DNA from: Escherichia phage pro147
Sequence record: NC_028896.1
Reading direction: 5' to 3' (one strand)
DNA length: 32,675 nucleotides
A program made the translations under genes and the position numbers. This document shows positions 1-32,675 of the stretch, piece after piece (position 1 is the stretch's first letter; the number at the start of each line of letters is the position of its first letter). The notes below the pieces were generated by a model. The model did no database searches. It was not told the DNA's origin and worked only from the letters and a program-made list of their open reading frames with translations.

Positions 1-13
1 GTCAGTTATTGGT
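1..13. repeat. Left copy of 13-bp terminal direct repeat gtcagttattggt; candidate prophage att core (attL/attR)
   Basis: Identical 13-mer at 1-13 and 32663-32675, flanking a complete P2-like gene set with the integrase adjacent to the right copy. The repeat may extend beyond the window. Confidence 0.55.
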
Positions 14-6989: not shown

Positions 6990-7799
6990 ATGACGCAAAT
7001 TAGTGAACGATGGAAGCACAACGGCATTACTAAAGGTTATTGCAATATTTGTGGAAAATATGACCTCCTCACAAAAGATCATGTTCCTCCAAAGTGTGCC
7101 ATAACCTTAGGTCCTGTTCTTCAGAAAACAGTTAGCGAATTTTTTGGTGTTCAGGAACCAGTTAAACCATTAAATGCTAAAAACGGCTCTTATTTCAAAA
7201 CCATTTGCAGCCACTGTAACAATAAGGTGTTAGGTGGACTCGACGTTGCAATTGAAAATGTAGCAAAGTCCTTTAAAGAACAGTTGAGTCAATATATGAA
7301 TGGTATGAGTGTATTTCCATTCATTAGAATACCTTTTGATAGCATATCTTTCACTAAGGCTATGATTGGACACGTGCTATCGGCAACTTCAGTTGAAGAT
7401 TGTAAAAAAGAACCCGTAGATAGCCCCTTCTATACACCTTTAAAAGATTATGTTTTGGGTAAGAATCCAAGTTTTGAGGAGACTCATGATATTTACTACT
7501 GGTTTTACCCACACAGAATGCACATATCAGCTCAAAGTGTAGCATTTATGAACGAAGGACATGTAGCATTTATTTGTGCTTTACATTTTTTTCCTATCGG
7601 TTTTATTATCACAATTAAAAATGAAGGAATATACCCTGCACACTCAACAAAATTAGAGCTTAAAGATAAATTCCTTACATTTAACATGACATCTGTAAAT
7701 TATGAGTATACGACATTTCCATTTGTAAATCTTAAGGGAAACCAAATGTATGCTATAAGCAACGGCCATACATGTGTGAGTTATCCAATAATTAAGTGA
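6990..7799 (+). CDS. Hypothetical 269-aa protein with N-terminal HNH-nuclease-like motif, in the P2 Z/fun cargo position; candidate anti-phage / superinfection-exclusion protein
   Basis: AT-rich ORF on the strand opposite all flanking late genes; ATG at 6990 preceded by GAGGGA. Motif string CNICGK...KDHVPPK...N...CSHCNN resembles the CxxC / DH / N / CxxC signature of HNH endonucleases. The C-terminal ~180 aa were not recognised. Confidence 0.6.
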   Translation: MTQISERWKHNGITKGYCNICGKYDLLTKDHVPPKCAITLGPVLQKTVSEFFGVQEPVKPLNAKNGSYFKTICSHCNNKVLGGLDVAIENVAKSFKEQLSQYMNGMSVFPFIRIPFDSISFTKAMIGHVLSATSVEDCKKEPVDSPFYTPLKDYVLGKNPSFEETHDIYYWFYPHRMHISAQSVAFMNEGHVAFICALHFFPIGFIITIKNEGIYPAHSTKLELKDKFLTFNMTSVNYEYTTFPFVNLKGNQMYAISNGHTCVSYPIIK

Positions 7800-7877: not shown

Positions 7878-7926
7878 TGTCAGATTAGGCTTTACTCTAT
7901 GCAATAGATATGTAAGCTCATACAAC

Positions 7927-8457
7927 TTATTGCGGCATTTCCGGCCATTCAGGATTTGCAGGATCCACACGGCTGACCAGAACGCTGTAGCGTTCCCATG
8001 CTTCCAGTCGTGTGCGCTCCTCGTCTGTTGCCATATTCAGCCTGACAGCGCGTTCCAGCGGCTGGATGACTGATTCAGCTTCGGAAAGCAATGCGGCCTT
8101 TTGTAATTCGGCCTGTTGTTGCTGTTCGTCTGCCGTATAAATCCGTTTAACTACAGCTCCATCCTTAAACATCCACTTACCGGAATCATCAGCGCGGCGG
8201 TTGGCTGTAATATCGGAAACCTCAACGACGCTAAAACCTTCAGGGTTAAGCGTGGAGGCATCTTTAGTGATGGCGACAATAATATTATTCTCGTCATAAA
8301 GAATTTTTATTGTGTCTTCCTGAAAGTTCTTTAATTCCTCGTACCAGTTTTTACCGTCTTCGGACCATAACCAGATAACATCAAAATTCTTTGTTAGCTG
8401 GTATTGTTCGACAGTTTTAGGGTTTCCAGACTTAATATTTTTTAAATGCTGCATCAT
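7927..8457 (-). CDS. G: Tail fiber assembly protein G, 176 aa
   Basis: 176-aa ORF immediately downstream of the tail fiber gene; position and length match P2 gpG. Confidence 0.85.
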
Positions 8458-10503
8458 TTACACCTGTGCGACGTTATACCATGTGCCATTGATGTATTTT
8501 TGTATTGGCCTGAATACTGCGGGGTCATCACCATCGACTTCACCGACAATACCAAGCCCGGTAATTACGTGCCCTGCTTTCTCATACATCACCCCTTTCT
8601 GCATGGTCTGGACAACACGTGTGCCAAGTCTGATATCTCTCACATAGCGGGAATCAAAGTTACCGTAATCCGAGGGATTAACACGCCCCGTAATATTTAT
8701 GGTCTTATTACTTTGAATGCTTCCGGAAACAAAGCGCATAACATGGACGTTATTAGCATAAACATCCAGATTACCATCGCCATTTTGTTTAAATCCGGTA
8801 TCGTTATCACCAAGAACAATAGAGTTCCCACCCAACGCGTTATTCGTGCCAAGTGCCAGCCCGCCATCAATCCTGGCACCATTACCAACAGACACAACTC
8901 CTGTTCTTAAGTTGATGCCGAATGGCCTTAATGGCCCAATATCTCCATTTTCACCCTCATTTTCTCGTGTAGGGATGATATACAGGTTTTCTTCAGAACG
9001 GCGAAAAATAGCCCCAAAAGATGAATTAAATATCCTCAGTGCATTGACTGTAGATATTTTTACTTCACTGCTGAAAAGGGCTTTAACAAGAACATACAGA
9101 GCATCCCATTTAAGATTCATCAGGTCTTTTGTTGTGGTGCTCTGGCGACTTCTCCATTTGAAATATTCATTGCCGTTGTCACCTGTTTCAAACCACATAT
9201 ATGAATCAGTATCGCTGTCGGCATCATTTTTAAATCCAATCTTTGCCCAGTCAGTATTTCGAATCCAGGCAAGGATTGAGTCGTTTTCAAAAGTAAGCCC
9301 ACCGGACAAGGTATCGCCATTCTTTTGCACCGCGTTCCTGGCCCTGTTTACCGTTTCCTGCAAACCGAGGTATTCGATAACGGCAGTAACGGTCGCTTTA
9401 GCCAGAATATCCCGTCCGACTTTTGTCAGGGTTGCCAGGCTGGCAACATCATTCCCCGTAAAATACGGAAACCTGTCTGCCGCAGTAGCAAGCCCCGCCA
9501 GCGCCGTCAAAGTGGCATCTTTCGGTTGCTTACCCGCAAGCGCATTAGTCATGGTGGTAGCAAAATTCGGGTCATTGCCCAGCGCCGCCGCCAGCTCGTT
9601 CAGCGTATTCAGTGCGTCAGGCGACGAGTCTACAAGGGCGGCAATCGCGGCCATAACGAAAGCCGTGTTTGCGATCTGAGTATTATTCGTTCCCTGTCGC
9701 GCAGTTGGCGTCGTTGGCGTTCCGGTCAGTGCAGGGCTGTTTAATGGCGCTTTCTTGTTCGTTTCATCCATTACCGTCTTAACGGCTTTTGGTGTTGCGG
9801 CGAGCGTCTCAGACATGCTGTTGGTCGCACTACTTAGCTGGACAAGACCTTTTCGCGCTGTGGTAGCGTCCTGTGCGGTATATTTCCCGTTAGCAAGGTC
9901 ATATGCGGCCTTAACCGCTTTCGGCGTTGCGGCCAGTGTTTCAGACGTGCTGTTGGTCGCATTGCTTAACTGAGTAAAACCTTTTGCGGTCAGCGAGGCG
10001 TCCGGGTGACGTCGTGACTGTTCATGCTCTGCAATTTTGTCATCAACGTAATCCTGCGTCGCCATCACCGTTGTGGTGTCAATGGTCAGCTCCACTGAGG
10101 CCACACTGCTGACGATGATGACCATGCGGCAGGTCTGCGAACGCCCTGAGCCTTCGGCAAGGGTAGGTTTATAACTTTCGGCCATGTTCGCCACGGCAAT
10201 TAACGTTCCCGCATCATCGTACAGGCCAAGCTCTCGCATCCAGAAACCGCCCACCTCCGGCGGAATAACCAGCTCTGCGATAATATAATTACTGTTTCGT
10301 TTGTCCTGGCTGATTTTGTTCAGCGCATGTCGCCAGACTTCGTGGATAAGCCCGGTCTGTCCGGCATCCGGGACAGGCAATTTACCACCGCCATCCCCGA
10401 CGGCCATCGTGGTAATGTTGACCTTCCGCCCTCCCGGCGCGGTTGCCGCTGCCAGCTTTGCTGCACCGGCAGTGGTGATAACGGTTTTGAATTTTGTGCT
10501 CAT
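8458..10503 (-). CDS. H: Tail fiber protein H, 681 aa
   Basis: 681-aa ORF after baseplate gene I; contains the duplicated ...SETLAATPKAVK... motif and a variable C-terminal half as expected for P2-type tail fibers. Confidence 0.9.
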   Translation of the reverse strand: MSTKFKTVITTAGAAKLAAATAPGGRKVNITTMAVGDGGGKLPVPDAGQTGLIHEVWRHALNKISQDKRNSNYIIAELVIPPEVGGFWMRELGLYDDAGTLIAVANMAESYKPTLAEGSGRSQTCRMVIIVSSVASVELTIDTTTVMATQDYVDDKIAEHEQSRRHPDASLTAKGFTQLSNATNSTSETLAATPKAVKAAYDLANGKYTAQDATTARKGLVQLSSATNSMSETLAATPKAVKTVMDETNKKAPLNSPALTGTPTTPTARQGTNNTQIANTAFVMAAIAALVDSSPDALNTLNELAAALGNDPNFATTMTNALAGKQPKDATLTALAGLATAADRFPYFTGNDVASLATLTKVGRDILAKATVTAVIEYLGLQETVNRARNAVQKNGDTLSGGLTFENDSILAWIRNTDWAKIGFKNDADSDTDSYMWFETGDNGNEYFKWRSRQSTTTKDLMNLKWDALYVLVKALFSSEVKISTVNALRIFNSSFGAIFRRSEENLYIIPTRENEGENGDIGPLRPFGINLRTGVVSVGNGARIDGGLALGTNNALGGNSIVLGDNDTGFKQNGDGNLDVYANNVHVMRFVSGSIQSNKTINITGRVNPSDYGNFDSRYVRDIRLGTRVVQTMQKGVMYEKAGHVITGLGIVGEVDGDDPAVFRPIQKYINGTWYNVAQV
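9778..9989. repeat. Imperfect tandem duplication (two ~80-bp units, period 132 bp) inside tail fiber gene H
   Basis: Unit at 9778-9857 (cttaacggcttttggtgttgcgg...) and unit at 9910-9989 (cttaaccgctttcggcgttgcgg...); they encode the repeated QLSxATNSxSETLAATPKAVK peptide. Confidence 0.7.
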
Positions 10504-12297: not shown

Positions 12298-12929
12298 AAA
12301 GGACTCCCGGTTGTGCCGCCGCTGTCGCCGGGGTGTTTATGGGTATGCAGTACCTTACCGTTTGATGAGAGTTCACCGCCGGTGTGTTCAATGTTGCCGC
12401 GCATCGTCCCGCCCTTCTGCACTTCCAGCGTGCCGGTAGTCAGTTTGTTGGTGCAGACCACTTCCGGTGTGTCCAGGGTGATGCGGGTTGATGCTTTCAC
12501 CATAACCACCGGCACCGTGGCAGTAACAGAATCAGAAGCCATCACGCTGGCCGTTTTAACTCCGCTTACCGTGAGCGCACTGGTTTCAGGTTCATACTCA
12601 ATCACCGCCCCGTCAGGGAAACGGATATGCAGGGCATCCGCCGACGCAGACGGCGCGGGGTTATCGCCGGAATAAATCCCCGGCAGAACGAACGCCGTGT
12701 CGAGTTCACCGCCCACGGCCAGAATCAGCACCTGTTCCCCCACGGAAGGTGCCCACCATGTGCGCGAACGTCCGGCGCGATGGGTCAGCCACTGAAGCCA
12801 GTCGGTGCACATGCCGCCGGTCTGCACACGGCAGCGACCGGCGTTAAGGTCGGTTTCGACGACAAGGCCGGTGCGGATCATGTTGCGCAGTGCGCGCGCG
12901 AGTTCCTGAATATTTGCGAGAGTGTTCAT
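12294..12929 (-). CDS. V: Baseplate central spike protein V, 211 aa
   Basis: 211-aa ORF, first gene of the V-W-J-I-H-G block; matches P2 gpV size and position. Confidence 0.9.
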   Translation of the reverse strand: MNTLANIQELARALRNMIRTGLVVETDLNAGRCRVQTGGMCTDWLQWLTHRAGRSRTWWAPSVGEQVLILAVGGELDTAFVLPGIYSGDNPAPSASADALHIRFPDGAVIEYEPETSALTVSGVKTASVMASDSVTATVPVVMVKASTRITLDTPEVVCTNKLTTGTLEVQKGGTMRGNIEHTGGELSSNGKVLHTHKHPGDSGGTTGSPL

Positions 12930-12995
12930 AACGGGAAGGATGCCGCCGGGTCATACCGGCGGCAATGTGACGATGAGGTGTCGGGGATGGCACAA

Positions 12996-13448
12996 CTAAC
13001 GGTCGAGGTGCGCCAGAATAATCTCTTCAATCATCTGCACATCCTCACCGGTAAAGCCGAGCAGAGGACGCGCCGGATAATCAATTTTCTTACCGTCTTT
13101 CCGGGTTTCTTCCGACAGACCGAACTGATGCACGCTGGCGATTTTCGGTGACTTCCCGCCGTAAAACTCCATTGATGCCTGTTCCGGGCTGGCGCGGATA
13201 TGCAAAAAACGACTGGTGATAAGTTTCGCAAACATTTTTCGCTTAACACGACCAGTCTTTTTTCTGGCGCTCTGCTGCTGGCGTGGCGCGTAGGGTGTGC
13301 CGTCCGGGGCTTTCTGAGCCATCACCCGACGCTGCTGACTCTGCCGCAGACGTTTCGCCAGTTCGGCGCTCAGTCGCCGACGCCCTGACGGTGACAGCGA
13401 TTCAATCAGTCCGGTCAGCCGGTCTTCAAAACGCTTAAACTCATTCAT
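12996..13448 (-). CDS. S: Tail completion protein S, 150 aa
   Basis: 150-aa ORF downstream of R; matches P2 gpS. Confidence 0.88.
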   Translation of the reverse strand: MNEFKRFEDRLTGLIESLSPSGRRRLSAELAKRLRQSQQRRVMAQKAPDGTPYAPRQQQSARKKTGRVKRKMFAKLITSRFLHIRASPEQASMEFYGGKSPKIASVHQFGLSEETRKDGKKIDYPARPLLGFTGEDVQMIEEIILAHLDR

Positions 13449-13908
13449 CCCTCTTGCTCACCAGTTCGCCATTGATATAAAGCTCCACCGGGCGGGTGAC
13501 CGGCTCCGGCGGCGTGGGTTCCGGGATATTCTTCACATGCAGTGCGCCGTCCACCTCACTGACCAGCGTGCGCTCGGTCAGCATCAGGCTGATGCTGATA
13601 TCAAAGCTGCTGTCATTGTTGATGTCTGCATAAAACGTGAAGCCCTTTTTCTGGCCTTCGTCAGTGGTCATGATGTCGGGCTGATTTTCCCGCAGCCACG
13701 CCAGCACCGGCACGATGAGCAGGTCAAAATCACCGGTAAAGTCGGTCACAATCACATTGAGCGTGTAACGCTTTTCGAATGACAGCGACGTCGCCAGTGT
13801 GGAGGCAATACTCCCGTTATCCACGAATATCCGCAGCATCTCGGGGCTGGTTTTCAGCACCGTGACGGCATCAGTCAGTGCCCTGCGCAGGCTGTCGGGT
13901 TTGAGCAT
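13441..13908 (-). CDS. R: Tail completion protein R, 155 aa
   Basis: 155-aa ORF downstream of the lysis cassette; matches P2 gpR. Confidence 0.88.
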   Translation of the reverse strand: MLKPDSLRRALTDAVTVLKTSPEMLRIFVDNGSIASTLATSLSFEKRYTLNVIVTDFTGDFDLLIVPVLAWLRENQPDIMTTDEGQKKGFTFYADINNDSSFDISISLMLTERTLVSEVDGALHVKNIPEPTPPEPVTRPVELYINGELVSKRDE

Positions 13909-14161
13909 CGTTTTCGTCCTGACAGTGTTTAATCATTTTTACCTGGCTGGCACAACGTGCCAGCGCGTTCTCAAGCTGCCGGATATCGGCACTTAAATCG
14001 CCGTTCGTCTGCGGGTCACTGCCCGGCATCGGGCAAAGGCTCACTTTCGGGCAGGCGTTGGCGACAATCACTGGCGTCAGTGCAGGCCGGACGCTGGTGC
14101 AACCGGCGCACAGCATCAGGCAGGTCAGCGCCATACCAGCGGCGAAAATCCTCGTTTTCAT
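13871..14161 (-). CDS. lysC: LysC, outer-membrane lipoprotein spanin (Rz1-like), 96 aa, embedded in/overlapping lysB
   Basis: Internal ATG at 14159-14161 gives MKTRIFAAGMALTCLMLCAGC... with a lipobox (LCAGC). It lies in an alternate frame overlapping the 3' part of lysB and the R start, as in P2. Confidence 0.75.
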   Translation of the reverse strand: MKTRIFAAGMALTCLMLCAGCTSVRPALTPVIVANACPKVSLCPMPGSDPQTNGDLSADIRQLENALARCASQVKMIKHCQDENDAQTRQPAQGTD

Positions 14162-14441
14162 TAAGTAACCTCGTGATGGTTTTCTCGCGCAGTGCTTCAC
14201 GCTTCGCGGCGTTCTCCAGTTCCTGACGCAGTGCCACCTGCGCCAGCTCGTTTTTGTCTGCCCTGGTGAGGGCAACATGAAGCTGATTTTTCAGCATGGT
14301 GATGGTCGTCTGCTGCCCGCTGGCGACGCTGTTCGCCCTGTCCAGTGAGGTGCGCAGGCTGGCATTTTCATGCTTCACCAGAAACAGCCCCGCCACCGCC
14401 AGTGATAACAACACAACCAGCACAGTCATCAGCTTTGACAT
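14016..14441 (-). CDS. lysB: LysB, inner-membrane spanin (Rz-like), 141 aa
   Basis: 141-aa ORF with N-terminal TM helix (MSKLMTVLVVLLSLAVAGLFLV) followed by a coiled-coil region; position after lysA. Confidence 0.85.
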   Translation of the reverse strand: MSKLMTVLVVLLSLAVAGLFLVKHENASLRTSLDRANSVASGQQTTITMLKNQLHVALTRADKNELAQVALRQELENAAKREALREKTITRLLNENEDFRRWYGADLPDAVRRLHQRPACTDASDCRQRLPESEPLPDAGQ

Positions 14442-14854
14442 GGTTCCCGCCCCTCAAAACGCTGACGGCAGGCCGTACGTATCAGCCGGAAGAACAGCGA
14501 CGCCACGAGGTAAATCAGCGCAGTAAAAATCCACCCGGCAGCGACCAGCGAGATAAATGTCGCCACCATCACCACCAGAGCCGCTGCCCGCCTGCGCCAC
14601 GGCACCGGCTGCAAAAACAGCGACGTGACAATCTTCACGGCCAGCGATTCCGGCGGCAGCTCCCGCCCGTAGCGTTCCAGCACATACTCCGTGGCATACA
14701 CGCCGACACCACCGGCAACCACACAGATAACCGTCGCCAGAATCGCCCAGGCAGCGACAAAACTGACGACCACGCTCTGCGGGTAAATCAGGGACAGTGC
14801 CAGCATCAGCGCCAGCGACACGTGCAGCATCAGTGAAAGGGATAATTTCTTCAT
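14429..14854 (-). CDS. lysA: LysA, membrane protein of the lysis cassette (lysis timing/antiholin-like), 141 aa
   Basis: 141-aa strongly hydrophobic multi-TM ORF immediately downstream of endolysin K, as in P2. Confidence 0.85.
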   Translation of the reverse strand: MKKLSLSLMLHVSLALMLALSLIYPQSVVVSFVAAWAILATVICVVAGGVGVYATEYVLERYGRELPPESLAVKIVTSLFLQPVPWRRRAAALVVMVATFISLVAAGWIFTALIYLVASLFFRLIRTACRQRFEGREPCQS

Positions 14855-14868
14855 GGTGTTTACTCCGT

Positions 14869-15366
14869 TTAAGCCGGTACGCCGCCAGCGGTACGCCAGA
14901 CGGTGACCAGTTTTTCCAGTGAATGCTCACGCTGACCGTAACCGGCACCCGGCAGGGACGCCCAGATATTGCGACAGCGTGAAATGGCGCGCTCAATGCG
15001 TCCCGCCCGGATGTCATCCAGTGCTCCGCGTTCGCGGATCAACTGAATGGCGAGTCTGTCCTGTGACAACGGACTAAAATCCGGCAGGGCAAGCTGTTTG
15101 CGGTAATGCGGCCAGAACAGGTAAAGCTGCTGATAGCGACCGGAGGCCGTGGATTTTTCACCGCGACGGTTAAACACCTTCGCCGGTCGGCCATGTGCGA
15201 ACGGGTGGTCACTGTAGTCGGTGAAGATTTCCGGCTTTCCGTCCAGTCCGGTGACTATCACGTCATAGCCCCGGTTTTTCGTCAGCGGATGATTCGCCGT
15301 CCCTTCGGACACGGCCAGCATGTCGAGAAAGGCCGCGATATTCTGATGCGTGTTAATTACCGGCAT
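14869..15366 (-). CDS. K: Endolysin K (lysozyme), 165 aa
   Basis: 165-aa ORF downstream of holin Y; length and N-terminal region match P2 gpK as recalled. Confidence 0.9.
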   Translation of the reverse strand: MPVINTHQNIAAFLDMLAVSEGTANHPLTKNRGYDVIVTGLDGKPEIFTDYSDHPFAHGRPAKVFNRRGEKSTASGRYQQLYLFWPHYRKQLALPDFSPLSQDRLAIQLIRERGALDDIRAGRIERAISRCRNIWASLPGAGYGQREHSLEKLVTVWRTAGGVPA

Positions 15367-15647
15367 TACTGTTTCCCCCTGCCCTTAAAACGGCGCTGAA
15401 TGGCAATCTCAATCACCTGATAACCGGCGATACCCAGCATGGAGCCGATACCGCACACCGCAGGCAGTGACAGGTCAGGAAACTGCACCAGAACAACACC
15501 GGCAACCATCGAGACAAAACCACCGAGCAACATGCGCCCGATAAACAGACGCGGGGTGATGGGTTCACCACCGGCAAGCACCTTGCCGACAACAATCAGC
15601 ACCCCAATCATGAAAAGCGACAGGACGCTTTTTTCTTCTGCTGTCAT
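15366..15647 (-). CDS. Y: Holin Y, 93 aa
   Basis: 93-aa ORF with hydrophobic TM segments and a charged C-terminus (RRFKGRGKQ), directly upstream of K. Confidence 0.88.
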   Translation of the reverse strand: MTAEEKSVLSLFMIGVLIVVGKVLAGGEPITPRLFIGRMLLGGFVSMVAGVVLVQFPDLSLPAVCGIGSMLGIAGYQVIEIAIQRRFKGRGKQ

Positions 15648-15650
15648 GCG

Positions 15651-15854
15651 TTACTCCCACAGATTGACAGTTTCAGCCACGGGCGCGGTCTGAACGTCGG
15701 GCAGTTCGACGGCGGTGCCGTGCGGCAGCACCGCACCCAGTTCAGCCAGTCCCGGATTTGCGGCGAGCACGGCCTTGAGCACGCCCTCAGTGCGCCCGTA
15801 ATACCGGACACAGATGGCGTCGAGCGTGTCGCCCTGTAGCGCAAAGGTCTTCAT
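15651..15854 (-). CDS. X: Tail protein X, 67 aa
   Basis: Internal ATG at 15852-15854 gives MKTFALQGDTLDAICVRYYGRTEG..., the P2 gpX N-terminus as recalled; the track ORF has a 23-aa extension from a GTG codon. Confidence 0.85.
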   Translation of the reverse strand: MKTFALQGDTLDAICVRYYGRTEGVLKAVLAANPGLAELGAVLPHGTAVELPDVQTAPVAETVNLWE

Positions 15855-22203: not shown

Positions 22204-22911
22204 CTATATATACTTCCTTTTTACTCTACTTAATTCTATCACTGATGAGGAGTGACAAAATGACAAATTAATAGTATCGATATAATCCAAAATTTGACTC
22301 TCAACCTCAATAAAAATATTTTTGGGCCCATTACTAATCGATATACCGATTTCATCCAAAACAGCCATCATTTTTCTCTGATGAGTTTTATATTTATAGT
22401 CTTTATTTTCCTCTGTAATATGTGCATTGGCTTCCTCAATAACACATTTGATTCTAGATATTATTTCTAGATAATCTCTCGAAACAGATATATCACCGCC
22501 TTGCGCTTCAGGGAACATAACCCTATACCATCTAAAAAAATTAACTTTCTCTGGATAGATGCTACTTCTTTTAGTTAACTCAGCACTTGCAAATTCTCTA
22601 AACATCGTCAGATGACTAGTGTAATTACTATTATTATTATTTTTAACTCCAGCGTTATATGTCATCAAAGCAATCATAACACCAAAAACGGTAACAAAAG
22701 TTGTTATAAGCCATCCAAACGCCTGAAAATACATTACTATACCAGATGTTTTTTCCGCAAAAAATTTTAAGCACTGGCTATCGAAGCATATATCACGCTC
22801 ATATAGCTTTTCATTCTGAATAGTTTCAAAAAGAGAAATTAGCGAAAAAATCAAAAAAAGAGCTGACGACACACCGACAATATATTTGAGAAGTCTAATA
22901 TTTGCATTCAT
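22204..22911 (-). CDS. Putative retron effector: 235-aa protein with two N-terminal transmembrane helices
   Basis: AT-rich ORF overlapping the 3' end of the upstream reverse-transcriptase gene by 4 nt. Hydrophobic segments YIVGVSSALFLIFSLISLF and VMYFQAFGWLITTFVTVFGVMIALMTY, followed by a ~140-aa soluble C-terminal domain. Confidence 0.7.
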   Translation of the reverse strand: MNANIRLLKYIVGVSSALFLIFSLISLFETIQNEKLYERDICFDSQCLKFFAEKTSGIVMYFQAFGWLITTFVTVFGVMIALMTYNAGVKNNNNSNYTSHLTMFREFASAELTKRSSIYPEKVNFFRWYRVMFPEAQGGDISVSRDYLEIISRIKCVIEEANAHITEENKDYKYKTHQRKMMAVLDEIGISISNGPKNIFIEVESQILDYIDTINLSFCHSSSVIELSRVKRKYI

Positions 22912-24182
22912 AATGGTTTTAAAGATGCCAATCTAGATTTAAAACACTCCAGTTTTTCTTTAAATGATTCAGAGCGAGTAAGAATAATCATCTTATATCT
23001 CGTCAAATCATATTTTCTTTTATACCAATGTTTATTTTGATTACCTTTCGAATACGACAACTCTAAACTTTTTATAGCTGCATCAATCACAGCAACATCT
23101 CTTTTAGATGGCATCGGTTTTATTGCCTGCAACTGTTTCTTGAATGATTCATATTTTTCATGCGCAACACGGCCAAGCTTATTCACTCTCCCCATACATC
23201 TATTGAATTCTTTTCTGTATGCAACACTTGTTTTTGTGTTATTTTTTGCCGCCAGTAATTTCAAATTATGTATAGATGCCCTGATTCTTTTGACTTCATC
23301 GGATGGTAGTCGAGGTGAGTCATAGTCAACTCTTAAACCATGTACTTTTATAGGTTCAGATGAACAGTGAAATATTTTAGTTTTGCGCTTATTTATCGGC
23401 AAGTCATGCTCAGAAAGCATCCTCTCTATATGGCTTTGCATTTGAGAAAAATCATAATTACTTATTTTAGATGACACGGTAATATCATCTACCAAACGCG
23501 TATAAACAAGTCCTTTCCTCTGCGCACGTCTTACCACATCCCCTTCAACAGCGAATAAACACAAAGTTGCTATATAGCTTGATGTTAAGGCCCCCTGTAC
23601 GACAAAATCATCCTTAGTACATATATCCACCAAGTATTCAAGAGCCTCATCCTTAATATGCAATATCTCCTCAAACACGCTCCTAACCAGATCTCTATGG
23701 ATATTATCGAAAAAATTACTTATATCCACCTTGAGAACTGTTTTTGCTCCACAATGAGCCTTTGCACATGAAACATAGTCACGTTTGACATTAGAATTTA
23801 AAACATCATTTTTACTGGGAACTGAACCAAACAAAAATGAAGGAAAAACAACCAATTCCTTAAAGATACGTTTATTAATTCTACTCTGTAATAATCTCAT
23901 TTTAGGATGCAGGGAGTAGACAATCCGTTTGCTTCCGTCAATTTTGGGAATTTCTTTTAGAGTATATTTCTCATCTAATGGTAATTCTGCAATAGCTTTA
24001 AGCTCTTCAACAGAAATCGATAAAGCCTTTGACAACTTTTCAAGTGTTGTGATAGGAGCATTGGATTTGCTGTATGGTTTAAATTTATCCATAAACATAC
24101 CATTCAAATTCAAAGTTACGTACGGTCTTCCCATACTCAAGGGTGGAACAGCAGAGATGCTTACATCAACAATTGTCAGCAA
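22908..24182 (-). CDS. Retron-type reverse transcriptase (start uncertain: TTG 24182, ATG 24134 or ATG 24098)
   Basis: Translation shows the RT motifs ...CAKAHCGAKTVLKVDISNFFDNI..., ...QGALTSSYIATLCL..., ...YTRLVDDITV... (YxDD box) and a VHGL motif resembling the retron VTG signature. AT-rich; the TTG at 24180-24182 is preceded by AGAGG. Confidence 0.8.
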   Translation of the reverse strand: MLTIVDVSISAVPPLSMGRPYVTLNLNGMFMDKFKPYSKSNAPITTLEKLSKALSISVEELKAIAELPLDEKYTLKEIPKIDGSKRIVYSLHPKMRLLQSRINKRIFKELVVFPSFLFGSVPSKNDVLNSNVKRDYVSCAKAHCGAKTVLKVDISNFFDNIHRDLVRSVFEEILHIKDEALEYLVDICTKDDFVVQGALTSSYIATLCLFAVEGDVVRRAQRKGLVYTRLVDDITVSSKISNYDFSQMQSHIERMLSEHDLPINKRKTKIFHCSSEPIKVHGLRVDYDSPRLPSDEVKRIRASIHNLKLLAAKNNTKTSVAYRKEFNRCMGRVNKLGRVAHEKYESFKKQLQAIKPMPSKRDVAVIDAAIKSLELSYSKGNQNKHWYKRKYDLTRYKMIILTRSESFKEKLECFKSRLASLKPL

Positions 24183-24423
24183 CAGCCTCTGCTATCTTTC
24201 GACCGTACGTAATGTCGTCGGCTACGGCACCATCGTAGTTGACGACGGTGGGGCCTCGCTGATAGGTCCATAGTGGACGCTTTTTTGTAAAAGCAAAAAC
24301 TGACAATTTAATGTTGTTGACTGCCGCATACCAAGCGAATCGCTGGTGCGCTAAGAATAATGCAACAAAAAAATAAGAATTTCAACCGGGTAACTGCAAG
24401 CCAGCGACATCGTTTAGCGCGCA
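24183..24423 (-). ncRNA. Candidate retron non-coding RNA (msr/msd) in the structured leader upstream of the RT gene
   Basis: GC-rich non-coding stretch between cos and the RT with a nested hairpin gtcgtc-gg-ctacg-gcaccat-cgtag-tt-gacgac (24214-24246) and a 12-nt inverted repeat ttacgtacggtc (24116-24127) / gaccgtacgtaa (24201-24212). Exact msr/msd boundaries could not be determined. Confidence 0.3.
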
Positions 24424-24442
24424 GTGCTTTCCCCGCCTCGCC
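24424..24442 (-). other. cos: Phage cos site: 19-nt cohesive-end sequence GGCGAGGCGGGGAAAGCAC (minus-strand sense)
   Basis: Plus strand 24424-24442 reads gtgctttccccgcctcgcc, the reverse complement of the P2 cohesive end as recalled; followed by ...ctgcgcgct as at the P2 left end. Adjacent GC hairpin ccgccc (24442-24447) / gggcgg (24456-24461) plus tttt. Confidence 0.75.
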
Positions 24443-24648
24443 CGCCCGCTTCATGGGGCGGTTTTAATGCAGTAGCATGACCACTCAACTAGCGCGCCAG
24501 TCCTGATGTCGCCAGGCAGTTATTGTTCTCTGACTTGCGTGCGCTTCGATGCAGAGTAATGCACTTCCTGAATTGCTCGCATTCGCATCGTTATCATGAT
24601 AGAAAACAGGTAGTTATTTGTGCGCAACTTAAGAAGAAATCACTAATT

Positions 24649-26193
24649 ATGAAAAAGATTTATGAATTAACTACTGGTAGAGCGCTTAAGTATTTTCTGC
24701 AGCATGATTCATACACTACTCTGGAGCTACCCAGTTATGTCGATTTTTCTTCCTTGCTTGAAGAAATCAACTCCGCGATAGATGAAGGTAAAATCAACTT
24801 CCAACCTGACTCCAAGTCATTGATGGGGAAGAATATAAATTACGAGGTTTTAGTCAGCAAAGATGGCTTATATAGCTGGCGACGAATAACACTAATTAAT
24901 CCTCTGTACTACGTGTATTTTTGTAAACTTATTACATCCCCTTCCAACTGGAAGGCTATAAAGAATAAATTTAGAGAGTTTGAGTCTAATGATCTTTTTT
25001 TATGCTCAAGTACCCCAGTGAGCAAAAAGAACACCTCAAACGTAGCTGCATCTGTTTTAAACTGGTGGGAAGATTTTGAACAAAAAAGTCTTTCATTGGC
25101 TCTTGAGTATGAGTTCATGTTCAGCACAGATATTTCAAACTTCTACCCTTCTATTTACACTCATAGCTTTGAATGGGTATTCATCTCAAAAGAAGAGGCC
25201 AAAAAGAAAGAAAATAACAATAACCCAGGACGATTGATTGACACTCATATCCAGATGATGATGAGTAATCAGACAAACGGAATACCATTGGGTAGTACGT
25301 TGATGGATACATTTGCCGAATTAATTTTAGGCGAAATTGATTTACAGCTAAGAAAAAAAACTGAAGAGCAAAAAATAACGGATTACAAAGTAGTTCGCTA
25401 CAGAGATGATTATCGAATATTTTCAAGCAGTAAAGATGATTTGGACAAAATCTCAAAGTGTTTGGTTGAGGTCTTAGGTGAGTTTGGGCTTGATTTAAAC
25501 TCAAGAAAAACAGAACTACATGACGACATCATTCTTCACTCTCTTAAATCAGCAAAAAAAGAATATATTATAGAAAGGTCGTTCAACTCCCTACAGAAAA
25601 TGTTGTATGCAATATATTTATTTTCTTTAAAACATCAAAACTCCAAAATTACAGTTAGATATTTAAATGATTTCTTGCGAAAATTATTTAGGAAGAAAAA
25701 GATCACAAATAGTGGGCATCAACTAGATGCAATGCTTGGAATTATTTCAAGCATCATGGCTAAAAACCCAACCACCTACCCAGTGGGAATGGCTATTTTC
25801 GCAAAACTCTTGACCTTCCTTTATGACGACGATGAACTCAAATTTGGCAAGTTACAACAACTTCATTGTAAACTAGGTAAACAACCAAATACTGAAATGT
25901 TAGATATTTGGTTTCAACGAGTTCAAGGGAAGATACACACACAATGGGAAGGCGATTACAAAACAGCCCTATGTCAACGCATAAATGATGAACTCAAGGG
26001 AAAAAAAACATTTACCATTGATGGCCTGTGGGATGTAGAGTGGATTCCGGGCTCAGCCAAAAGTAAAAACAAACAGAAAATACTATCAATTTTGAAAAAA
26101 ACAAAAATTGTGGATTTAGATGCATTCGAAGAAATGGATAATGATATTACACCAGAAGAAGTGAACTTATTCGACAAGGAACACAGCGCTTAA
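24649..26193 (+). CDS. Abi-P2-like (Abi/UG-class) reverse transcriptase, single-gene anti-phage system, 514 aa (alternative start ATG 24559)
   Basis: AT-rich ORF in the tin/old cargo position. RT motifs ...FSTDISNFYPSIYTH..., ...NGIPLGSTLMDTFAEL..., ...VVRYRDDYRIFS..., followed by a long C-terminal extension with no recognisable effector domain. No adjacent partner gene. Confidence 0.75.
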   Translation: MKKIYELTTGRALKYFLQHDSYTTLELPSYVDFSSLLEEINSAIDEGKINFQPDSKSLMGKNINYEVLVSKDGLYSWRRITLINPLYYVYFCKLITSPSNWKAIKNKFREFESNDLFLCSSTPVSKKNTSNVAASVLNWWEDFEQKSLSLALEYEFMFSTDISNFYPSIYTHSFEWVFISKEEAKKKENNNNPGRLIDTHIQMMMSNQTNGIPLGSTLMDTFAELILGEIDLQLRKKTEEQKITDYKVVRYRDDYRIFSSSKDDLDKISKCLVEVLGEFGLDLNSRKTELHDDIILHSLKSAKKEYIIERSFNSLQKMLYAIYLFSLKHQNSKITVRYLNDFLRKLFRKKKITNSGHQLDAMLGIISSIMAKNPTTYPVGMAIFAKLLTFLYDDDELKFGKLQQLHCKLGKQPNTEMLDIWFQRVQGKIHTQWEGDYKTALCQRINDELKGKKTFTIDGLWDVEWIPGSAKSKNKQKILSILKKTKIVDLDAFEEMDNDITPEEVNLFDKEHSA

Positions 26194-32572: not shown

Positions 32573-32662
32573 ACCAGAGTTAACTAGAGCCAATTGAAGC
32601 GATATGAGTAATTTAACTAATTGTAATACAACAGAAAATACCGCTACGGCGGGGGCTACCAA

Positions 32663-32675
32663 GTCAGTTATTGGT
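32663..32675. repeat. Right copy of 13-bp terminal direct repeat gtcagttattggt; candidate att core
   Basis: Identical to bases 1-13; lies 91 bp downstream of the integrase stop. Confidence 0.55.

Follow-up and report, generated by a model that had tools for sequence, protein, structure and literature searches.

The lysB/lysC region of Escherichia phage pro147 very probably encodes an overlapped two-component spanin of the P2 type

What do two out-of-frame genes at the end of a phage lysis cassette encode, how are they arranged with respect to one another, and does their intactness tell us anything about whether the prophage that carries them can be induced? Here we examine these questions for positions 13871-14441 of a 32,675-nucleotide stretch of DNA from Escherichia phage pro147 (NC_028896.1), which in its full length is referred to as the window. 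We consider it very probable that this region specifies LysB/LysC, the two-component spanin of a prophage of the P2-like (Peduovirus) group, from two genes in an overlapped arrangement. The late genes of the prophage lie on the minus strand, and megablast of window positions 1-24000 returned phage P2, Wphi and their relatives at ~96% identity over 86% of the query.

The region is the exact union of two intact minus-strand open reading frames, lysB and lysC, in agreement with the coordinates given in a preliminary description of this DNA. The gene lysB (14016-14441, minus strand) encodes a putative i-spanin of 141 aa, the translation of which starts MSKLMTVLVVLLSLAVAGLFLVKHEN and contains a predicted N-terminal transmembrane (TM) anchor followed by a long periplasmic helix. 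The gene lysC (13871-14161, minus strand) is read in the +1 frame relative to lysB and encodes a putative o-spanin, a 96-aa precursor starting MKTRIFAAGMALTCLMLCAGCTSVRP with a predicted mature outer-membrane lipoprotein of 76 aa. Its ATG at 14161 is located 280 nt inside lysB ((14441-14161) mod 3 = 1), which bears out the internal alternate-frame start described earlier, and has a Shine-Dalgarno sequence of its own, GAGG, 7 nt upstream (14169-14172, minus strand); the same GAGGT element is given for P2 lysC in SpaninDB. For identical sequence, PGAP places the start of lysC at Met10 (window position 14134), yielding a protein of 87 aa. We rejected this candidate: a protein starting there is without the charged n-region, and the GAGG serves the upstream ATG at 14161, a start that is conserved in P2 and supplies both the n-region and the Shine-Dalgarno sequence. 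Residue 10 is Thr in P2, and its being Met here is what tempts gene callers to the shorter form.

The pair stands at the end of the lysis cassette, downstream of the endolysin gene, in the order Y-K-lysA-lysB-lysC on one strand and within the late O operon. Y (15366-15647, minus strand) encodes a holin of 93 aa that is 100% identical to P2 gpY and matches Pfam PF04550 Phage_holin_3_2 (E = 2.6e-42), and K (14869-15366, minus strand) an endolysin of 165 aa that is 100% identical to P2 gpK and is named a glycoside hydrolase family 24 protein by PGAP. The product of lysA (14429-14854, minus strand; 141 aa; 94% identity to P2 LysA; NF038378, 117 bits) has several hydrophobic segments, as a multi-pass membrane protein, and is a putative antiholin or lysis-timing factor; the 3' end of lysA overlaps the start of lysB by 13 nt. 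All five genes are full length and unbroken, so the earlier claim of a complete lysis cassette holds. On the other side, the last 38 nt of lysC (13871-13908, minus strand) overlap the start of the tail completion gene R (13908-13441). A gathering-threshold Rfam scan of the whole window returned no family, and ARAGORN returned no tRNA. A scan of positions 12900-15700 found no promoter, with weak terminator-like matches (6 vs 2.9 expected), and the hairpin annotated as an 'attenuator' in P2 (-16.4 kcal/mol) was no better than shuffles (z = -1.2).

LysB shares 94% identity with P2 LysB from end to end, scores 171.7 bits against the NCBIfam equivalog TIGR03495 phage_LysB (cut-off 92.75; profile positions 2-135 of 135) and matches PHROG 89, Rz-like spanin (E = 1.9e-59). 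Its Kyte-Doolittle profile (19-residue window) reaches a maximum of 2.84 at residue 4 (residues 4-22), and no second hydrophobic segment was found along the protein by the same measure. Codons 4-22 (14376-14432, minus strand; LMTVLVVLLSLAVAGLFLV) would therefore form a single N-terminal TM domain, with the preceding MSK in the cytoplasm, an N-in topology and a largely helical remainder, the features by which an i-spanin is recognised. An AlphaFold2 single-sequence model shows a continuous helix from residue 2 to 103 and then two short ones (mean pLDDT 77.7), which fits a helical stalk anchored in the inner membrane. Two periplasmic cysteines, C120 and C126, are confined to the P2/186 group, and the best-conserved motif of LysB (R100, W102, L107-P108, R113, A119) falls in the doubly coding stretch from which the LysC signal peptide is also read.

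LysC is 91% identical to P2 LysC, again along the entire protein, and profile searches gave 125.8 bits against the NCBIfam equivalog NF038368 P2_Rz1 (cut-off 27), 60.3 bits against Pfam PF23793 (E = 1.8e-16; cut-off 27) and a match to PHROG 456. Its predicted signal peptide (aa 1-20, MKTRIFAAGMALTCLMLCAG, followed by CTS) and the codon for Cys21 (14101-14099) together occupy 14099-14161 on the minus strand. The n-region carries K2 and R4 and is followed by a hydrophobic core (h-region KD19 maximum 1.8) and then L-C-A-G-C21, with Thr22 at +2. These features predict processing by signal peptidase II at a lipobox cysteine that is presumably acylated, and the +2 residue, being other than Asp, is compatible with sorting to the outer membrane, as expected of an o-spanin. 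The LCAGC string named in the preliminary description is thus present, with n- and h-regions that fit, in a box that is off consensus at -3.

Positions -3 to -1 read C-A-G, and it is the Cys at -3 that makes strict lipobox patterns fail: neither [LVI][ASTVI][GAS]C nor a PROSITE PS00013-type pattern matches, and a match is obtained only when Cys is allowed at that position. SpaninDB gives the same picture for P2 LysC: the lipobox is entered as 'LCAG', the signal as 20 residues long and the mature protein as 76, with LipoP cleavage sites at 20 and 17 and the remark 'No hit by Prosite'. Deviant lipoboxes are on record among functional spanins, so the pattern failure does not exclude LysC from their number. 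The preliminary description had proposed a missing lipoprotein prediction as the observation that should overturn its reading; this test is fragile, as pattern-based predictors miss the LysC box. The residue acylated is likely to be Cys21, because it is invariant in 8 divergent LysC homologues and aligns with the canonical boxes LSGC (Fels-2, ENT90, ST512) and LAGC (phiCTX), while Cys18 is restricted to the P2, 186 and phiE52237 sequences. LCAGCT is also invariant in 60 of 60 related haplotypes.

Mature LysC contains 7 Pro (9%) and four further cysteines, C37, C43, C70 and C80, the first three invariant and the last present in 7 of the 8 homologues; with the two of LysB, both members of the pair have the periplasmic cysteines that are looked for in a spanin (2 in LysB, 4 in mature LysC). 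The AlphaFold2 single-sequence model of LysC is of low confidence (pLDDT 51), with a predicted C-terminal helix. Searches of PDB sequences gave no meaningful match to LysB or LysC (best E 0.24 and 0.26, respectively); neither family has a solved structure. It is conceivable, if very unlikely, that the LysC of this clade, with C14, C18 and C21 in its signal peptide, is processed at either Cys18 or Cys21 to give two lipoprotein isoforms, or else that the six periplasmic cysteines form disulfides in a pattern different from the one in lambda Rz/Rz1. If true, either would amount to a small refinement of spanin biochemistry and to no new system.

Spanin gene pairs are classed as embedded when the o-spanin gene lies wholly within the i-spanin gene, and as overlapped when it starts inside, out of frame, and ends beyond (PMC6139136). 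Here lysC shares 146 nt with lysB (14016-14161, minus strand; LysB aa 94-141 and LysC aa 1-48), then runs for 145 nt past the lysB stop at 14016, the final 38 nt of it inside R. The pair is accordingly overlapped, of the P2 type, and does not conform to the embedded arrangement of the lambda type; the term 'embedded' in the preliminary description was wrong. In the literature P2 is the named example of an overlapped spanin and lambda of an embedded one (PMC6139136), and P2 lysC is described as starting in the +1 frame within lysB and stopping in R, in contrast to lambda (PMC3091744). The SpaninDB entry for P2 reads 'ovl', and PGAP, where it annotates identical DNA in E. coli chromosomes, describes the genes as 'substantially overlapping although not fully embedded'. 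Such an overlap would save coding space and would put translation of lysC on the same late transcript.

The nearest well-described system is P2 itself (GenBank AF063097; lysB 7922-8347, lysC 8202-8492), in which lysB and lysC have the lengths found here (426 and 291 nt) and the same +1 frame, with the same 146-nt overlap, 145-nt extension and 38-nt overlap with R (P2 R starts at 8455). Also shared are the LCAG/C lipobox, the full set of six periplasmic cysteines and the neighbouring genes Y, K, lysA and R. LysB differs from its P2 counterpart at 8 residues and LysC at 9, most of these changes falling in the signal peptide or in the linker that follows it. At the nucleotide level the 571 bp share 96-97% identity with P2, Wphi and further Peduovirus genomes in which the genes are annotated lysB/lysC or Rz/Rz1. 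Identical copies of the 571 bp occur in many E. coli chromosomes, where PGAP names the products 'Rz-like lysis system protein LysB' and 'Rz1-like lysis system protein LysC', and matches were found in 1609 of the 5426 complete E. coli genomes searched (~30%). The pair is already known, and automated annotation names both of its genes.

More distant systems share the general plan. In 186, Fels-2, phiCTX and phiE52237 (LysC identity 33-69%, LysB 25-61%) the overlapped +1 architecture beside a tail-completion gene is retained and Cys14, Cys21, Cys37, Cys43 and Cys70 are invariant, but most of these phages have a canonical LSGC or LAGC box and have neither of the two LysB cysteines. Lambda Rz/Rz1 resembles the pair in combining a type II inner-membrane helical protein with a small +1-frame outer-membrane lipoprotein, in its place as the last pair of the lysis cassette and in its periplasmic cysteines (PMC6139136). 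It differs in that Rz1 is embedded in Rz whereas lysC extends beyond lysB, and in that mature Rz1 has 40 aa with 10 Pro, whereas mature LysC has 76 aa, 7 Pro and a predicted C-terminal helix. Between LysB/LysC and lambda Rz/Rz1 we detected no sequence similarity, and PHROG and Pfam assign them to different families.

By analogy with lambda Rz/Rz1 (PMC6139136), LysB would be tethered to the inner membrane and would extend its helical domain into the periplasm. LysC would undergo signal peptidase II cleavage and acylation at Cys21, and the Lol pathway would deliver it to the outer membrane, on its inner leaflet. The C-terminal parts of LysB and LysC would then bind each other, and the pair would bridge the periplasm by way of the peptidoglycan mesh (PMC6139136), in a complex probably stabilised by homotypic disulfides. 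At the time of lysis, holin Y would permeabilise the inner membrane and endolysin K would degrade the murein; the spanin complexes, once freed, would move and collapse, fusing the inner and outer membranes (PMC6139136), and this fusion would clear the final barrier to virion release. The P2 pair is regarded as the prototype overlapped spanin, described as experimentally tested (PMC6139136), and as functionally equivalent to Rz/Rz1 (PMC6139136, PMC3091744). For P2 LysB/LysC, a need for the pair in outer-membrane disruption, or its ability to complement lambda Rz/Rz1, is reported (PMC6139136). The two-component spanin with a LysC lipoprotein partner proposed in the preliminary description is in accord with orthology, NCBIfam equivalogs and topology signals alike, and we found no evidence against the identity of the genes as lysB and lysC.

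Whether a second frame that lies half inside another gene is a gene at all can also be judged from its conservation. The +1 frame, an overlap of 146-176 nt and a lysC end beyond lysB are kept in 8 homologues with LysC identity down to 33%, the arrangement having been compared in 186, Fels-2, phiCTX, ENT90, Klebsiella ST512 phi13.2 and Burkholderia phiE52237. In the part of lysC that lies outside the lysB overlap, 20 of 34 differences from phage 186 (binomial p = 0.002) and 20 of 39 from ENT90 (p = 0.015) fall at codon position 3, a pattern that points to purifying selection on the lysC frame there. Within a set of 60 distinct haplotypes from IMG/VR contigs, in which the relatives retrieved with LysC as query are all close (92-100% identity), lysC is intact in 60/60 and lysB in 59/60. 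Variable sites among these haplotypes make up 12.3% of the doubly coding stretch vs 27.9% of the lysB-only part, and in the doubly coding stretch variation sits mostly at the third positions of LysB codons, which are the second positions of LysC codons; because of this placement, the LysB frame is taken to be the more constrained of the two in the overlap.

As to the integrity of the prophage, homologues of the P2 essential genes are all full length (Q, P, O, N, M, L, X, R, S, V, W, J, I, H, G, FI, FII, E, T, U, D, ogr, B and A). At 4704-4698 lies TTTTTTG, the E/E' slippery site, and at 24424-24442 the P2 cos 19-mer, and the window starts and ends with the same 13-bp att direct repeat, GTCAGTTATTGGT. 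The tail-fibre gene H appeared incomplete in tblastn and blastp searches, which returned a C-terminal HSP alone; compared side by side, the N-terminal ~470 residues are nearly identical, and we consider H intact and its apparent truncation a reporting artefact. With essential gene homologues, cos, att and the lysis cassette all intact, it is plausible from sequence that the prophage is intact as a whole.

Several other readings of these data deserve consideration. The lysC frame could be an alternative-frame ORF that arose by chance in coding DNA rich in GC, leaving LysB as the sole product. Alternative-frame ORFs of 80-190 aa are indeed numerous in this GC-rich window (for example 14454-15017, 187 aa), such that ORF length by itself is no better than chance here, and the failure of strict lipobox patterns could be read in the same direction. 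A chance frame is nevertheless hard to square with HMM scores far above their cut-offs, with a frame, signal peptide and Cys pattern that are kept in homologues at 33-53% identity, or with the third-position excess, the dedicated Shine-Dalgarno sequence and the intactness of lysC in every haplotype, and we put the probability of this reading close to nil. P2 lysC was, moreover, reportedly defined genetically by Markov et al. in 2004. A different objection accepts both proteins and holds that they act as regulators of lysis timing ('lysis control protein') with no part in outer-membrane disruption. This has its origin in the records themselves: P2 and Wphi GenBank entries use the wording 'nonessential; affects timing of lysis' and 'lysis control protein', and several phage records keep 'lysis regulatory protein'. 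The P2 GenBank record lists lysB and lysC as non-essential genes that 'affect timing of lysis', and their non-essential status suggests that the contribution of the pair under laboratory conditions is modest. Delayed lysis, however, is the expected result of spanin loss, and the topology signals are those of an inner-membrane protein paired with an outer-membrane lipoprotein. The literature, too, has P2 LysB/LysC as a tested overlapped spanin equivalent to Rz/Rz1 (PMC6139136, PMC3091744). We therefore regard a purely regulatory role as extremely unlikely and retain the spanin assignment.

The remaining question concerns the prophage rather than the genes. From the lysis cassette the preliminary description had argued that the prophage is functional and inducible; an intact prophage is plausible on the evidence of its genes, cos and att, but the cassette has no bearing on inducibility, and the switch found here, a small P2-type C with Cox and no homologue of Tum or 186 CI, does not favour it. 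The int, C and cox genes are 53%, 48% and 35% identical to those of P2, and a Cox domain protein is present; this divergence points to a different immunity type and integration site, still of the C/Cox type. Searches of the window by tblastn with 186 Tum, CI, CII and Orf97 gave nothing with E < 0.02. Taking the SOS-inducible 186 type to be defined by a LexA-controlled tum antirepressor and a 186-type CI repressor, the prophage, as judged from its sequence, appears not to belong to it. P2-type phages are reported to be non-UV-inducible, with C not cleaved via RecA (PMC1904268), and in a P2-like prophage that does respond to mitomycin C, induction requires tum (PMC12055606). It is thus probable that the genes are as described while the prophage is not SOS-inducible, its intactness being owed to recent acquisition or to spontaneous lytic cycles. 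The C/Cox switch without tum or a 186-type CI, the reported behaviour of P2-type phages and the need of inducible relatives for tum all speak for this view, as does a near-identical prophage (99.994%) in E. coli EC9, in which gene D is frameshifted and which shows that copies do decay. Set against it are the intact essential genes, cos and att; the view itself touches the inference drawn from the cassette and leaves the identity of the genes as it stands. Given a C/Cox switch and no tum homologue, the mitomycin C test that had been proposed would probably be negative in this prophage even if it were fully functional, and hence uninformative.

From the standpoint of phage biology, the pair described here is a textbook P2 overlapped spanin, and its importance beyond correct annotation is small. 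The LysC lipobox is a recognised off-consensus variant, for which a negative pattern prediction is no sign of decay, and in a C/Cox-type P2 prophage without tum an intact lysis cassette is uninformative with regard to SOS inducibility. For the annotation of the locus itself, the correction is that lysB and lysC are overlapped rather than embedded.

In RefSeq/PGAP annotation of sequences identical to the window, the outer spanin gene lysC is 27 nt shorter, starting at Met10 (position 14134 rather than 14161, minus strand) and encoding an 87-aa product (WP_223951575.1). Initiation at 14134 deprives the LysC signal peptide of its basic n-region, and the Met10 start is without counterpart in P2, where residue 10 is Thr. 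Further into the gene, an 8-bp stem with a 3-nt loop (GCUGGCAC-GUU-GUGCCAGC; 13944-13965, minus strand) is the counterpart of a feature annotated in the P2 record as “putative transcription attenuator; O operon”. This hairpin is not followed by a U-tract and is no more stable than shuffled sequence.

The closely related prophage carried by the Escherichia coli chromosome EC9 (NZ_CP060950.1) is 99.994% identical to the window, differing by one mismatch and one gap over 32675 bases. Gene D is annotated as frameshifted in the EC9 copy (locus 34149-35311), whereas in the window it is intact (428-1591, 387 aa). A 13-bp direct repeat, GTCAGTTATTGGT, occurs at both ends of the window (1-13 and 32663-32675), and in EC9, where the prophage sits between pflB and pflA and so sets the two genes apart from each other, the same repeat forms the start of pflA (ATG TCA GTT ATT GGT, M-S-V-I-G). 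At the int-side junction of the EC9 prophage the pflA ATG is changed to AAG, and an in-frame ATG within the prophage (window position 32604) provides PflA with a 20-residue N-terminal extension, MSNLTNCNTTENTATAGATK; the extended protein is annotated by PGAP at 265 aa.

The tail-fibre gene H (8461-10503, minus strand) is intact and encodes 681 aa. Its ~470 N-terminal residues are nearly identical to those of P2 H, whereas identity drops to only about 50% over the receptor-binding C-terminal part, which bears a 48-residue deletion relative to P2. This divergence and the accompanying deletion suggest that the phage differs from P2 in host-receptor specificity. Also missing relative to P2 is the non-essential orf30, normally located between S and V (interval 12930-12995 in the window), an absence shared with Wphi.

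In P2-like phages the variable Z/fun locus is known to be a defence-gene hotspot; here it is occupied by an ORF of 269 aa (6990-7799, plus strand) between the sheath gene FI and the tail-fibre assembly gene G. Searches of Pfam, PADLOC and NCBIfam gave no match to its product, the sole match being PHROG 21495, a family of unknown function. An N-terminal CxxC...DHVPPK motif is reminiscent of HNH-type nucleases. Given its location in such a hotspot, the ORF may therefore be an uncharacterised defence gene.

An Ec48-type retron (22204-24182, minus strand) separates the portal gene Q from the cos site. Its two components are a reverse transcriptase (22908-24182, minus strand; PADLOC RT_IV, E = 1.4e-176) and an effector with two transmembrane segments (22204-22911, minus strand; PADLOC 2TM_IV, E = 4.1e-85), the latter named “retron Ec48 family effector membrane protein” by PGAP. 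A non-coding stretch (24183-24420) adjoins the reverse transcriptase gene on its upstream side. The msr/msd RNA presumably lies within 240 nt upstream of that gene; an Rfam scan of the window returned no match to it. The P2 cohesive-end 19-mer, GGCGAGGCGGGGAAAGCAC, is conserved at 24424-24442 (minus strand), and the retron insertion has increased its distance from Q by ~2.1 kb relative to P2. Across cos from the retron, at the site of old and tin in P2, is an AbiP2-type reverse transcriptase of the DRT class (24523-26193, plus strand; PADLOC AbiP2, E = 4.7e-160). Thus, two reverse-transcriptase-based defence systems, one Ec48-type retron and one AbiP2-type, flank cos in this prophage. Among the 5426 complete E. 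coli genomes searched, 42 carry exactly this retron/cos/AbiP2 arrangement.
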